From the sequence record PP889479.1: a stretch of 64,000 nt of DNA. The stretch is one strand, 5' to 3'. The stretch comes from Klebsiella phage phi1_146029. A program made the position numbers and the translations under genes. The notes beneath the pieces are model-generated. The model searched no databases, was not told the DNA's origin, and was given only the letters and a program-made list of their open reading frames with translations. Shown here in pieces: positions 42,219 to 48,700 of this stretch. How positions within the stretch are numbered: position 1 is the first letter of the stretch; every line of letters begins with the position of its first letter.

Positions 42219-42255
42219 AAATACCCCTAGACGATTACATGTGCTAGGGGTATTT
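42219..42255 (+). terminator. conserved AAATACCCC-loop-GGGGTATTT hairpin (copy 1): terminator for tail fiber gene; 3' arm sits 4 nt before next start codon
   Basis: 12-bp perfect stem AAATACCCCTAG/CTAGGGGTATTT followed by TTTCAA-ATG. Confidence 0.55.
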
Positions 42256-42259
42256 TCAA

Positions 42260-45200
42260 ATGGCTAATAAACCCACGAAACCAAATTTTCCGCTTGGGCT
42301 TGAATCACAAGATCAATCCGTATTTCAAGAAGGTATTCTGAATAATGGTGTTGTAGAACATGGCCCAGATGCGGTTATGACTGTGCCAGAAACTCCTGAC
42401 GCATCTGGGGTTCCTTCTGCTGTCCGTTATAACGAAGATGACGACCAGTTTGAAGGATTTTATAACGAAGGCGGCTGGTTGCCGCTTGGTGGCGGTAACG
42501 GTGGGCGCTGGGAAGCACTTCCTCATGCTTCCTCTTCCCTGTTACAAGCAGGGCGTGCATATCTGGTAGATAATACGGACGGCGTCTCTACGGTGCTGTT
42601 CCCTTCCCCTAAACGTATTGGTGACAGTGTTACTGTCTGTGACCTTTATGGTAAATTTTCCACTTATCCTCTGACTGTTGACGGTAACGGTAAATCGATC
42701 TATGGCTCTGCTGATAGCATGACGATTTCTACCGATAATGTCAGTGCGACGTTTACGTGGACTGGTGAAGCCCGTGGTTGGGTTATTACATCAGGCGTCG
42801 GTCTGGGGCAAGGCCGGGTTTATAGTCGCGAAATTTACAGCCAAATTCTGTCAGCGTCAACACCATCTATTACCCTGAGCACTCAACCATCTATTGTAGA
42901 TGTGTACGTTGACGGAAAACGTTTGAAAGAATCCCTGTATACTCTCGACGGGTATGAAGTCAAATTCGATCCGGCGTTGGCCTCTGGTTCTGATGTGCAG
43001 ATTGTTCAGTACATCCCAATTCAGCTCGGCGCGGGCGGCGGGGGTTCTGGTGGCACTGTAATCACCTGGGAATACAACGGTGGTTCAGCTATCGGCGGCG
43101 AAACCCAAATCGTGTTGGACGTGGTCGTGGACTCAGTATCTGAGATCTACATCCGTGGTTCCCGTCAACAGATAGGGCGTGGATTCACATTTGATCCTGC
43201 CACGAGTACGATTACTCTGGCGGATGAACTGGAAGCCGGGGATGATGTCGTCGTCGTTATCAATGGTGACCCAACGGTCTATAACCAGATCGACCGTACT
43301 CCTTGGGAAGTCGCCCGCGCGAATAACGTAAGCAATTCTGAAGTCATCCTCAGCACCGACAAGCAAACTGCGTTGGATGGCAAAACAGTTCTTTATGATG
43401 TTTTAACACAGAAATACTGGGGTATTCCTTTGGGTATTCCCCAAGGGGCTAAAATTAAAAGCGTCGATTCTGGATCTCTGACGTACATTCCAGGAGATAT
43501 AAACGTAGATTTAAGTCTTTTGGGGTATGAGTTGCTGAAGGAACAATTAAGAACAGATGATCCAGGTTTAGGTACGAACCTGGTCTACGGGGCGCTAAAG
43601 CAAGTATCCATCACCAGTTTTATGTCGTTAGCAGATGTAATCCGTTTTGATAATGGCGAACTTGTTAATGTCGATGCTGCTATTATTGCAGCCAAAGCCG
43701 CAGGGCATGAGCATATTTACTTCCCTAACGGGCATTTTGAGTTATCCAGCACAACGGCGTTAAGCAATATAATGCTGATTGGGTCTAATAAATCCCAGTT
43801 TGGTGATATTAAATTAGAAAATAGTGACGGCTCCAGCGGAAAACTGTCGCTTGAAACTGATGGTTCAGTTCTTCATATCACTGGAGATGCCGCAACTAAT
43901 GGTATTACACTGTCGAACTCTGGTTCCGGGTTTACCAGTAGCCTTATCGGGATTGTTGGTTTCTCTATTTATTATCCAGACCAGGACTGGAAAGACTGGG
44001 TGCAGGGGACCACGGCAGATATCGATGGCGATTATTACTATGAACCAACAGTTTATCCACCAACATTTGTTGCCGATGTGTCTATGCGTGTTGTTTTTGA
44101 TAACTTATTCTTCATCAACGCATATCATTGGATAGATATCAAAAATGCACAGCTGGTTATATTTGGTAAAATTGCAGGTTCGCTATTGAATCGTGGATAT
44201 ACCGTAACAAGAATGGCGGCTGGCGGTGTAACCGAAAACTTTAACAGCTATCCATTCTGGACATGGGCTTGTGGTTTTGCTGGTATTTCATCGCGTGTTA
44301 ACCATTACTGTGATGCTGTAGGTAAGGCTATTCAGGTGGGGCTAGATGACGGAGTAACTCGCACTGTAGAGCAGATGCGTATCCTCCATGCGGCTATCAT
44401 CGGCTGTGCTGACGGTATTATCTGTGGCGGTAAGGGTGTATCCATTGTTGATGCCAAAATCGATAACGTAATGCGTGGTATCACAATTAGCGACGATGAT
44501 AACTCGGCATACCATCAGATTGGCAAGGCATGGATATCATCTTACTATCGCAACAACTACATTCCTAAGCAGAGAAGAGACGGCAACGTTTACGGGTTTA
44601 AATCCAATACAGCGACACCGATTGATTTGTCAGGTCTGCAGGTAGTTCGTGCTGACGGGCGTGGTGTATGGATGCCGTACTCCTCTGGGAGCCAGGTTGG
44701 CCGTTGTATTGTACAGCAGTGTATGTACAAGGCATTCACATTTGGTTCTCGTGGTCGTTCTACCGACGTTATATCGGTTAGTGGTTGCTATGCGGGCATG
44801 TACGTCGATACTTCGCTGACTGATCAGGTGGCATTCTCGTTTGGCGACTTTATGCGCTGTGATATTAAGGGTCTTCAGTGGAAGGGCGCTAGCAACGTCA
44901 CACCGTTCGAACTTAACAATGACCTTAATTACTACGAGGAAGGCAAGGAGCTAGATTTAACATCCCTGGGTGGCCGGTTCTACAAAGGGTACAGCAACAC
45001 CCTGTTCACCCAGGAGCGAGGACTCCGTGGTTTTATTAACAGCCTTACTACATCGTCAACGGCTTCACTGGAGGTTTTGCGTCTTGCAGGCACCAACACT
45101 GGTGGTAAGATTCTTAACGTCGGGCTAGGTATCCGGAACACAGTTTCTGATGGAACGGGTTATGGTGCTCTGGTTCTGTATGCGTCTCTTGCTGGCACAG

Positions 45201-45740: not shown

Positions 45741-45776
45741 AAATACCCCATATCGGTAACGCCTTATGGGGTATTT
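45741..45776 (+). terminator. conserved AAATACCCC-loop-GGGGTATTT hairpin (copy 2) 4 nt upstream of start codon
   Basis: 12-bp perfect stem AAATACCCCATA/TATGGGGTATTT then TTCAA-ATG. Confidence 0.55.
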
Positions 45777-45780
45777 TCAA

Positions 45781-48700
45781 ATGACCAGAAACGTAGAAGA
45801 AATCTTCGGTGGGGTAGTCGTAGCACCGCATCAGATCCCGTTCAAGTACACTTCAACAAACGGTGGGGAAACTTTCCTTTCCCTGCCATTTTATCCCATC
45901 ACCGGATTTGTTACTATCAACGGTGGTGTGCAGGTTCCTCTTGATAATTTCGAAATAGACGGGAATACATTAAATCTTGGTCGCGAACTGGATCCAGGGG
46001 ATGTTGTATTCTGTTTGTTCGATAAAATCATGTCTCCTCAAGATGCGAGCAATAGTGCGGTTCGTATCTACAAATTCCTTTCTGTTGGGGGTGAAACAGA
46101 ATTTACACCTGATTTCACAACTTATGGTGTACAGTCTTTGTACATAGACGGGAAATACAAAACGCCCGGTGAAGATTACAATTATTTCAAAACTTCAGGT
46201 AAGGTTGTTCTTGATACAGCATTACCAACAGGTGTTTGGGTCGTTGCCGAGATGTCAATTAAGCAAAATATCCCGGCGCTGGCTGGTGACAATGGCGCAA
46301 GTGAAATTGGCACAGAATCCGGCAAGACCGTTCAAGAGACTCTGGATGACATCGGTTATAACTTGGCTTCCGTAGAAAAACTGATGACAGATGTAACAGA
46401 TATGTCACCAGTACACACTCATGGTTTCTATAAGAGTATGGATGGTGGGCATGGTGACTGGTATAAGACAGGTAATACTGATCTGACCAAAGCTGGTACA
46501 CATGACGTAACTAAAGCCTTGGTTTATAATGCCAAAGGCACAGAATATGCTTTAAATGTTGCTGTGGATAAAATTAGTGTCTTAGCTAATGGTGCTAAGG
46601 GTTACGACTATGCCGACTGTATTGATAAGACTACGGATGACTTTGTATGTTTAGGGCAAGTCATCAATGGCATTGAATCTCATCTCACACTTGGCGTATC
46701 TATTGCTAATAACATCGACACTTACGATGGAGGCAAGCGTCTTAATATTATTGTACCTACCGACGGATACCGTATAGGTAAAGAAGCTGCCAAGCTGTAC
46801 TCCGGCGTAGCTTATAAATTGAATGCTGCTCGCATATTTGTATTTGCTGGGGCATCCTATCAATACTCCATCACCGGCAAACGTTTGAATGGCTTCCAGC
46901 ACGGTGTAGATGAGATCACCGAGAAATGGGAAGCCGTGAACAGGGGTATTTATTGGGGTTCAGTTAGCTTACAGAACACGTCCATCCACGGAGGTACTCT
47001 ATTCGGGGACCATACGATTAGGTCACTTAGAGACGACTGCTCCTCTGGTGTAGGTGTGCTGGCTCTGAACCCTGAAGGTTTCTCTACTCACGGTTTGATA
47101 ATCCGAGAAACGTTCATGTGGGCTATGGTGGAAACTACCGCAGAGGTAGAGGCCACTGAGTTTAACCAGAACGGGCATGCATTCGATAACGATAGTATTG
47201 ACTATAAATACATAGTTGATGCTTGGGTTAATGCTGGTATTACTTCCCGCTTTGGCAACTTTAACCGCACCACCCACTATAACAGTAAGTTCATGGGGGG
47301 CCGCCGTGGTACATATCGCAATGGCTGTGACTGGTCCGGTTTATATAACTGTGAAGTAACAAACCGTCTGGCATGGCGTAATGCAGCTAACGTATCTGGA
47401 GAAATACCAGAATATATTGCTGTTTGCACAGGCACAGCACTAGATGTATCCGGAGGCTATTGGGGACCAGCAGCAGCAAAAGATTATAATGCTCGCTATG
47501 GTACTGTTTACTCTACTGCACAGAACCATTCATTTAAGGCAGTGTATACAGAGTGGACTTACAACTTCATCACTATTAGTGCATGGGGTTTCAATGGTAA
47601 GGCTTCCCGTCTACAGGGACTTCATCTCGATGTTGTCAGTGTATATAAAGACAACTTCATGGATTATTCACAAATCCGATTCGAAGGCGGCTGCTTTGGT
47701 ACTGTTGACGACGGCGGTAATTATACCTATCCGGCTGGGTTTACTCACTATGATACCCCTAACGGGCAAACACAGTTTTCTTACGGTACTCCTGTAAGAG
47801 ATATTGGGGCATTCCGTCACAATGGATTCGACTTTAAGTATGGCCCTTACAATATGTACCTTACTGCCGGCACTGACTGGGATTCCTGGCGTGACCGTCC
47901 GTATGCCAAAGAGATGTTCAACCCATACGGCATGCAGATTAACAGCGGAACCGCGTTCTTGCCTTGGCAGATTCCTGCAATTAAGTCTATGGTTTGCTTC
48001 TGGATTAAGGACTTAACAGGCAACTTCGACCCACGAAATATTGTGGCGTGGATTACTGCTGCAAGTCAGGACGGCTCGGCAAACACCGACGAAGCATTGT
48101 ATAAATCCTTTGCTGAGAAGGTCGTGGACTTTGGTAATGGTTACAAGATGCTTATGCTGGCACAGAAGCGCCTCAGTGCGTGGGACGGCCAGTATACATT
48201 TGCTCGTAATGCCAACATCACCATAACTGTACCAGCTGAGACTCCGATTGTTCTCAAGGCTGTGGAAGCATACACCGGTGGCATTCCTATATTCCCTAAC
48301 GGGTGCGGAAACTACACTCCGGAATCTAACGGTGCAAGTATCCTGAGTCCTGTGACCAATCAGGTTGGTTTGGATGGTTCCCTGGGTGGTGGCCTGTTCT
48401 TTAACGGGGACATCATTGGGCCTTGGGTGCATATGCGTCGTACTGCTTCTGGGTACCGCTACGTACCATCCCTAACCGCTGGCTATACGCTTTCTAGGAA
48501 GATGGTGACTGGGGGCTACGCGCTGGATGCCGCGTACAAGGTGGCGTTCAACGCTACAATTACGGCGGTAAACTCCAACAACACCACTATAGTTGAGGTC
48601 CCAACTGCTCAGTTACCGTATATCGCAGTAGGTATTCCGCTTTACGTTACCGGCGGTTCGTCTACGTCTGCTACTGGAACTTTCCATCTCATCAAGCGTA

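Follow-up and report, generated by a model that had tools for sequence, protein, structure and literature searches.

In bacteriophage T4, genes e, soc, 49 and I-TevI have late promoters whose sequence also forms the 5′ strand of a structure burying the translation start region, and transcripts of the late type are free of it (Uzan & Miller 2010, PMC3014915). Here we analyze a similar element in a 64,000-nucleotide (nt) stretch of Klebsiella phage phi1_146029 (record PP889479.1; hereafter the window), which by its sequence is a Taipeivirus of the family Ackermannviridae. Across the tailspike region it shares ~97% identity with Klebsiella phages FKP10 and 0507-KN2-1, the latter a close relative. 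The element is a hairpin with a CCCC/GGGG core that stands directly ahead of start codons at three sites (A, B and C; Table 1). As at these T4 genes, a box of gp55 late-promoter type would form the 5′ strand of an RNA helix burying the ribosome site, long transcripts would fold and stay silent, and promoter-proximal late ones would lack the 5′ strand. Matching T4 e and 49, the endolysin and Holliday-junction resolvase genes of 0507-KN2-1 carry such hairpins. Unlike T4, the box is CTAAATA rather than TATAAATA, and several genes, mostly tailspikes behind other late genes, share a nearly identical CCCC/GGGG core. The Taipeivirus element also differs in looking terminator-like.

Other described systems share some of these properties. 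As in Rho-independent terminators, a GC-rich stem preceded by AAAUA and followed by UAUUUU lies just past stop codons; unlike in those terminators, the promoter box here supplies the A-tract, the 3′ arm holds the ribosome site of the following gene, and outside this genus the U-tract erodes while the stem is kept. Promoter-early stem-loops (PeSLs) of T4-type phages, reportedly described by Arbiol et al. in 2010 in Genome Biol Evol, are said to involve early sigma-70 promoters beside small mobile open reading frames (ORFs). They resemble the present element as repeated cassettes of promoter and stem-loop at gene boundaries in variable regions, coinciding with homology breakpoints, but the promoter here is late-type and lies within the stem, not beside it. 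A scan of the window for sigma-70-type early promoters called no TTGACA/TATAAT-type match at sites A-C. The early promoters of phage N4 are DNA hairpins with stems of 5-7 base pairs and 3-nt loops that are extruded and recognized by a virion RNA polymerase. They too hold promoter sequence inside an inverted repeat, but the G.U pairs described below point to RNA, the loops here measure 5-16 nt, and the annotation of the 0507-KN2-1 genome lists no virion RNA polymerase.

The pattern AAATACCCC-N(4-30)-GGGGTATTT matched the window three times and was absent from 100 dinucleotide-preserving shuffles. Together with direct reading of the sequence, this confirmed the three hairpins listed in an earlier analysis of the window (hereafter the original prediction). 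An ORF on the same strand stops 7-11 nt before each hairpin, and a start codon follows 2-5 nt after it. Full-length RNAs fold far more stably than shuffled sequences, against which the z-scores in Table 1 were taken, while RNAs cut at the predicted late start have z of about +1. The only Shine-Dalgarno-like element at each site is GGGG, located inside the 3′ arm and 6-9 nt 5′ of the ATG, with the AUG itself outside the stem, as originally described. Also as described there, the loops have nothing in common and the pairs extending the core differ in concert; these extensions read TAG/CTA, ATA/TAT and ATAC/GUGU. Taipeivirus stems are bounded by AAAUA on the 5′ side and UAUUUU on the 3′ side, the U-rich tracts in this phage being UAUUUUCA or UAUUUUAU. 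Rfam returned no family matches at the three hairpin positions.

The conserved unit starts two bases further 5′ than had been noted, because CT precedes all three 5′ arms, giving CTAAATACCCC. This 11-mer has four exact copies in the window, of which three are the 5′ arms of hairpins A-C and the fourth lacks an inverted partner. A family motif of the form CTAAATAcCcc was reportedly first published by Adriaenssens et al. (2012, Arch Virol 157:2035). PMC7283392 quotes it among the two 'unique regulatory motifs' that such phages have. What the original prediction overlooked is thus that the 5′ arm, judged by its letters, is this promoter motif. The literature on it, as far as it is quoted there, presents a linear motif only, with no mention of the inverted partner GGGGTAT, a sequestered ribosome site or a reason for the variable 'cCcc', and our literature search found no earlier description of this hairpin.

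Extending the comparison to the 7-nt box alone, we found ten copies of CTAAATA in the window, all ten on the coding strand and ~30-50 nt 5′ of an ATG with a ribosome site. The inverted pattern occurs only before the three start codons, but the box is not limited to those places, and all ten of its copies are promoter-like in position. We also scored the 41-kb syntenic loci of phages AG3, PP35, Det7, Bue1 and phiMAM1, which represent five genera. There, 37 of 47 copies are followed at 15-70 nt by an annotated start on the same strand, compared to 8.3% for composition-matched 7-mers (the 104 other permutations of the CTAAATA letters). Most of the ten misses, judged by eye, resemble differences in start-codon annotation, and box-to-start distances in these genera are 27-50 nt. 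Because the box comes as near as 27 nt to the ATG, it cannot be a -35 element, only one of -10 type. We then profiled 26 [ACT]TAAATA sites in the complete 0507-KN2-1 genome. No -35 element is conserved among them (information <0.4 bit at each position from -40 to -1), pyrimidines are preferred immediately 3′ of the box, and purines are enriched 6-7 nt 3′ of it (20/26 at position 6). CTAAATA matches six of the last seven bases of TATAAATA, and the variants TTAAATA and ATAAATA occur at equivalent positions; the hub gene has TATAAATA in full. In T4, the TATA box of late promoters occupies the -10 position (PMC2988020). Box-bearing genes in 0507-KN2-1 are mostly virion, lysis and late-type genes, namely those for endolysin, resolvase, DNA end protector, gp5, gp6, tailspikes, VrlC, gp14, sheath and scaffold. 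The annotation of that phage includes a 'sigma factor for late transcription' (orf153) and a sliding clamp (orf126), both encoded outside the stretch corresponding to the window, and homologues of gp55, gp33 and gp45 have been reported family-wide for ViI-like phages (PMC3184105). The CBA120 paper of 2011 described the late promoter as not yet identified. From its position and company, CTAAATA behaves like the -10 box of a T4-type (gp55) late promoter, a statement in which, as in the hairpin structure itself, we place more confidence than in the mechanism proposed below. A bidirectional late promoter was considered and rejected, as the reverse strand reads GAAAATA or TAAAATA, not CTAAATA.

We noticed that some annotated gp6, VrlC and tailspike starts disagree with the spacing of CTAAATA, ribosome site and ATG (locus L129 at 17335, L130 at 17332 and 31491, and L131 at 21168); these starts are probably mis-annotated in the public records.

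Hairpins are present at orthologous sites in six genera, so the conservation in relatives that the original prediction had asked about is there. A search of IMG/VR for the bare 9-nt inverted repeat returned mostly unrelated contigs (13/120 loci had the CT prefix, nine of these also with a nearby ATG) and was useless as a census, and we therefore used annotated genomes. Related loci were collected by tblastn against a phage collection, in which 282 records carry the marker protein, as a single-protein search had given close relatives only. This yielded 25 distinct CCCC/GGGG hairpins from three orthologous sites, with the tailspike sites duplicated in Det7 and Bue1. Among the 23 that could be aligned, 85.8% of cells are paired. 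The three pairs adjoining the core are paired in 23/23, with the types AU/UA, AU/UA/UG and AU/GC/GU/UA. The covariation score is 0.208 compared to 0.076 in shuffles, none of 500 shuffles reaches it, and shifted registers give at most 0.05. G.U pairs would be A.C mismatches on the opposite strand, and the structure is therefore read as sense-strand RNA. Loops differ in sequence and length (5-16 nt) between genera as well as between sites. The alignment thus supports a selected sense-strand RNA structure, as the covarying stem extensions had suggested, with few independent events behind the compensatory changes. Outside Taipeivirus the 3′ tail reads GGGGTATCTATG, GGGGTATTACAA, GGGGTCATCAAA, GGGGTATCAAAA or GGGGAATCTCATG, with further versions such as UAUCUAUG, UAUUACAA and UCAUCAAA, and the stem with its enclosed ribosome site is retained throughout. 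Since the U-tract is lost elsewhere while the stem stays, termination is plausible here but is not the conserved common denominator.

The same design recurs at other promoters. Ahead of the gp6 baseplate-wedge gene, bases overlapping the box pair with the ribosome site, and the pairing ATCTCC/GGAGAT gives way, with compensatory changes, to AACTTC/GGAGTT in Bue1 and AGCTCT/GGAGTT in phiMAM1. The gp14 neck gene has a comparable hairpin that is kept in AG3, PP35 and Det7. Outside the window, the endolysin gene, the RuvC-like resolvase gene and an ORF at 129296 of 0507-KN2-1 show pairings of this kind. Across the 26 candidate late promoters of that genome, removing the promoter-side 15 nt costs at least 8 kcal/mol in 10, and the same loss is seen in ~10% of chimeric pairings (644) or non-promoter gene starts (155). 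The distribution of losses is bimodal, with ~40% hairpin-type promoters and the rest open.

We propose that promoter-embedded hairpins silence or terminate transcripts started upstream while messenger RNAs (mRNAs) from the late promoter escape, and put the probability of this mechanism at roughly 0.6. Three signals would be packed into ~45 nt: a late-promoter box, a hairpin that hides the ribosome site, and a block on read-through transcripts. CTAAATA would serve the family's gp55-type late promoter as its -10-like box and correspond to the T4 box. Transcription would start ~6 nt 3′ of it, just beyond CCCC, a position that we infer by extrapolation from T4 and that the purine enrichment 6-7 nt past the box supports indirectly. 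The 5′ arm would then comprise the last five box bases, CCCC and 3-4 more bases, closing a hairpin of about -19 kcal/mol on the 3′ arm that holds the gene's only ribosome-binding site. A transcript reading through from the preceding gene would contain both arms, fold and hide that site, and in Taipeivirus, with its AAAUA and UAUUUU flanks, would probably also be partly terminated at the hairpin. Provided that CTAAATA is the -10 box, no transcript from the embedded promoter can contain the AAAUACCCC arm, and GGGG and the AUG would be left open for translation. Expression of the downstream gene would thus depend on its own late promoter and be shielded from transcription arriving from upstream, and the variable 'cCcc' of the published motif would be the anti-ribosome-site half of the hairpin subclass. 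The original prediction held that the hairpin occludes ribosome loading unless melted. The sequestration it described is retained here, but not the need for melting, since mRNAs started at the promoter would never contain the 5′ arm.

Several points weigh against this proposal. CCCC directly 3′ of the box should resist melting, whereas in the late promoters of T4 that stretch is rich in A/T (PMC2988020). The overall shift in folding loss is modest (Mann-Whitney p = 0.017 against chimeras and 0.087 against other gene starts), and only the strongly folding subclass of promoters stands out from the controls. The covariation traces to few independent events, namely three paralogous site classes in six genera. 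Sites A and B lie behind genes that are late and structural in their own right, and the T4 rationale of blocking premature early expression is not obviously applicable there; the benefit at these sites would be insulation or stoichiometry, not temporal gating. The gp6 hairpin stands at a divergent junction, without an upstream same-strand gene. We also dropped the idea that hairpin-type promoters are those abutting an upstream same-strand gene, as abutment does not separate them from open ones. Finally, a search of the literature found no transcript 5′ or 3′ ends, expression timing, transcriptome or mapped late promoter for any Ackermannviridae phage.

The hairpins could alternatively be plain Rho-independent terminators that abut the next promoter and ribosome site, the overlap being a by-product of genome compaction with no translational role. 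Several observations fit this, including the placement on which the original prediction had remarked: a GC core between AAAUA and UAUUUU begins shortly past the upstream stop codon, the GenBank record of phage KWBSE43-6 annotates its two tailspike hairpins as terminators predicted by ARNOLD, and the GC hairpin at 9428(-) lies clear of the ribosome site. A consensus terminator scan of the window nevertheless did not call sites A, B or C, because their loops exceed 8 nt or the U-run lies within the extended stem. The loss of the U-tract across genera, with the stem and enclosed ribosome site kept, is not what termination alone would lead one to expect. The gp6 and gp14 hairpins (the former a ~25-nt internal region with no U tail) cannot be terminators, yet in both of them bases close to the promoter pair and covary with the ribosome site. 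We consider a purely terminating role unlikely. A second class of explanation places the hairpin in the functional mRNA. The original prediction suggested an operator for a repressor or RNA-binding factor, or a nuclease processing site, to be melted or cut for expression; the ribosome site is indeed held in a stable conserved stem, and 0507-KN2-1 encodes a RegA-like 'translation repressor' (orf129). The invariant bases, however, all belong to the promoter box or to its complement; no conserved unpaired base is left over that a protein could recognize, and the loops share nothing. T4 RegA acts not on hairpins but on open initiation regions rich in A/U, and the Rfam search speaks against an operator as well. 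If the box is a -10 element, moreover, the gene's own mRNA lacks the 5′ arm. That reading now appears highly improbable, and the original interpretation as a whole is only partly supported. The hairpin might instead act on a polycistronic late mRNA, as a translational-coupling gate or as a 3′-end stabilizer after processing, setting the ratio of tailspike to baseplate proteins. The short ORFs that stop just ahead of each hairpin and the position of sites A and B inside a run of same-strand late genes would suit such a role. Past the stop codon, a terminating ribosome covers no more than ~7-8 nt. We rank translational coupling low because the stems begin just outside that reach, so that the CCCC/GGGG core would stay closed; nor would a polycistronic role explain why the 5′ arm must be a promoter box, and we regard it as very unlikely.

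The repeated promoter-hairpin might also serve chiefly as a recombination landmark for the swapping of tailspike cassettes, in the manner of PeSLs. Homology with AG3, Det7, KWBSE43-6 and others resumes exactly at 45739, the first base of the site B box, and reaches ~560 nt into the conserved N-terminal part of the tailspike, while the receptor-binding part upstream of that base shows no relation; the element thus marks the left edge of a conserved block. Det7, furthermore, has two copies with identical upstream flanks. A shared core of ~11-20 nt is nevertheless short for homologous recombination beside a 560-nt conserved coding block, the compensatory stem changes and the placement of the ribosome site point to selection on RNA structure, and no swappable cassette adjoins site C or the sites at the endolysin and resolvase genes. 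Recombination as the chief function is extremely doubtful. A bolder version of our proposal would make the CCCC/GGGG promoter-hairpin a family-wide portable cassette of terminator, late promoter and ribosome-site lock that insulates each tailspike gene and marks the exact left boundary of host-range modules or, more radically, a DNA hairpin that is extruded and read by an unusually long gp55-like sigma factor; we think this improbable. On balance, the element is best described as a late-promoter-embedded, ribosome-site-sequestering hairpin that would double as a terminator in this genus.

Table 1. Positions of the hairpins, CTAAATA boxes and associated start codons. Entries are in window coordinates except the last three, which refer to the 0507-KN2-1 genome. 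Energies (kcal/mol) are for the full RNA and for the form beginning at the predicted late start.
Feature	Position	Strand	Details	Energy, full vs late
Site A hairpin	42219-42255	+	upstream ORF stop at 42208	-18.6 (z -3.56) vs -4.1 (cut at 42229)
Site A promoter box CTAAATA	42217-42223	+	predicted late start near 42229	
Site A 5′ arm AAATACCCCTAG	42219-42230	+	CCCC 42224-42227, TAG 42228-42230	
Site A loop	42231-42243	+		
Site A 3′ arm CTAGGGGTATTT	42244-42255	+	CTA 42244-42246, GGGG 42247-42250, TATTT 42251-42255	
Site A tailspike ATG	42260	+		
Site B hairpin	45741-45776	+	small upstream ORF ends 45734	-19.1 (z -3.52) vs -4.7
Site B promoter box CTAAATA	45739-45745	+	predicted late start near 45751	
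Site B 5′ arm AAATACCCCATA		+	CCCC 45746-45749, ATA 45750-45752	
Site B loop	45753-45764	+		
Site B 3′ arm TATGGGGTATTT		+	TAT 45765-45767, GGGG 45768-45771, TATTT 45772-45776	
Site B tail-fibre/tailspike ATG	45781	+		
Site C hairpin	30791-30821	-	50-amino-acid CxxC ORF ends 30830	-19.0 (z -3.81) vs -3.9
Site C promoter box CTAAATA	30823-30817	-	predicted late start near 30811	
Site C 5′ arm AAATACCCCATAC		-	CCCC 30816-30813, ATAC 30812-30809	
Site C loop AATCC	30808-30804	-		
Site C 3′ arm GUGUGGGGUAUUU		-	GTGT 30803-30800, GGGG 30799-30796, TATTT 30795-30791; one U.G wobble	
Site C ATG	30789	-		
Fourth CTAAATACCCC copy, 'open' candidate late promoter	30337-30327	-	box 30331-30337; no inverted partner; ATG 30301	-2.5
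gp6 baseplate-wedge gene	38215-38264	+	CTAAATA 38215-38221; ATCTCC 38221-38226 pairs ribosome site GGAGAT 38252-38257; ATG 38262	-11.4 vs -2.8
gp14 neck gene	61959-61991	+	CTAAATA 61959-61965; hairpin 61964-61983, UACCUUCA/UGAGGGUA (ACCUUCA/UGAGGGU); ribosome site GAGGG; ATG 61989	-14.6 vs -0.4
Hairpin overlapping ribosome-site region	34429-34468	-	CTAAATA 34468-34462; hairpin 34460-34451/34445-34436, overlap by 3′ arm; ATG 34431	-10.5 vs -1.3
GC hairpin clear of ribosome site	9377-9428	-	CTAAATA 9428-9422, then hairpin 9421-9414/9409-9402; ATG 9379	-18.1
CTAAATA without hairpin	51771-51777	+	upstream of tailspike/tail-fibre gene	
CTAAATA without hairpin	55448-55454	+	upstream of VrlC-like baseplate gene; ATG 55488	
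Endolysin gene, 0507-KN2-1			pairing AAATACCTCTGCAA/TTGCGGAGGTATTT, TTAAATACCTCTGCAA...TTGCGGAGGTATTTTCTTATG	-18.2 vs -3.0
RuvC-like resolvase gene, 0507-KN2-1			pairing AAATACCCATAAC/GTTATGGGTATTT, CTAAATACCCATAAC...GTTATGGGTATTTTTATG	-16.2 vs -2.3
ORF, 0507-KN2-1	129296		pairing TTAAATACCCCC...GGGGGTATTTTCTTATG	-17.2 vs -1.3

The genes around the hairpins encode gp6- and gp7-like baseplate proteins, several tailspikes or tail fibres, VrlC and neck proteins. The gene at 30789(-), which had been labelled PARP-like, encodes a 151-amino-acid protein (phrog_4700). Its Pfam matches are ADP-ribosyltransferase-like, in keeping with that label, but all are weak and below cut-off (ART-PolyVal, 27.5 bits against 31.2; DUF3990, 30 against 32.2). 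The ORF upstream of site C (30830-30982, -) has a CxxC...CxxxxC spacing, possibly a zinc ribbon, ends 6 nt ahead of the promoter box and is apparently unannotated; 0507-KN2-1 has no annotation at the corresponding position. In Shigella phage AG3 (9810-9954, -), the site C promoter-hairpin and the first few codons are kept and the gene behind them is apparently deleted, leaving two CTAAATACCCC boxes 100 nt apart. In 0507-KN2-1, the hairpin-type promoter at 129263-129298, with a good ATG at 129296, lies inside the annotated orf119 (129155-130024), which suggests that 129296 is the true start of that gene.

The other published family motif, TTCAAT-N14-TATAAT, has six window matches with at most one mismatch where 0.41 are expected: 18457-18482(-), 21009-21034(-), 25219-25244(-), 34427-34452(-), 37945-37970(-) and 52393-52418(+). 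All start with TTCAATAA, and they are probably early or middle promoters. At 34427-34468(-), a CTAAATA box and a TTCAAT-N14-TATGAT match overlap in one hairpin, 5′ of a 66-amino-acid ORF by the transfer RNA (tRNA) cluster, and this may be a dual-timing promoter. Five tRNA genes (Rfam RF00005) make up that cluster, which lies at 33379-34731(-) with the site C region on one side and the baseplate module on the other. Adjoining the tRNA genes, a gene-poor stretch contains an Rfam match to the gammaproteobacterial small RNA STnc100 (35329-35543, -; 51.6 bits, gathering score 47).

Homology blocks shared with other Ackermannviridae resume sharply at or just upstream of each tailspike gene (45739, ~49666-49673 and ~51732-51739), and the unrelated C-terminal parts of the tailspikes fit modular exchange of receptor-binding domains. 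The tail-protein gene homologous to orf94 has a tandem-like internal repeat at 41561-41842, seen as offset secondary BLAST alignments of 73-81% identity ~56-88 nt apart. Beyond the family, unrelated viral contigs of low GC content (35%) carry CTAAATACCCC-GAAA-GGGGTATTTTTTATG and ATAAATACCCCC-GTAA-GGGGGATTTTTTATG directly 5′ of ORFs (contig L012 at ~5940(-); L082 at ~597(-) and ~11573(-)), one of them also with a TATAAATA box, and the compact promoter-hairpin design may thus occur in other T4-superfamily lineages too.

Both the family motif CTAAATAcCcc and the hairpin logic of T4 e, 49, soc and I-TevI were already known, and the Ackermannviridae element is a further case. What we offer is a possible mechanism behind a motif that appears unexplained in genome papers on Ackermannviridae. 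For annotation, hairpins so far labelled only as terminators gain a second possible role, and several public start codons look misplaced relative to the box. For the engineering of tailspikes in therapeutic Klebsiella, Salmonella and E. coli phages, losing the ~45-nt upstream element on a swap could silence the tailspike, and one driven from an upstream promoter could likewise be silenced. More broadly, our analysis suggests that the T4 trick of hiding the ribosome site of late genes would be widespread in a distant branch of the T4 superfamily, with endolysin and resolvase again among the genes affected.

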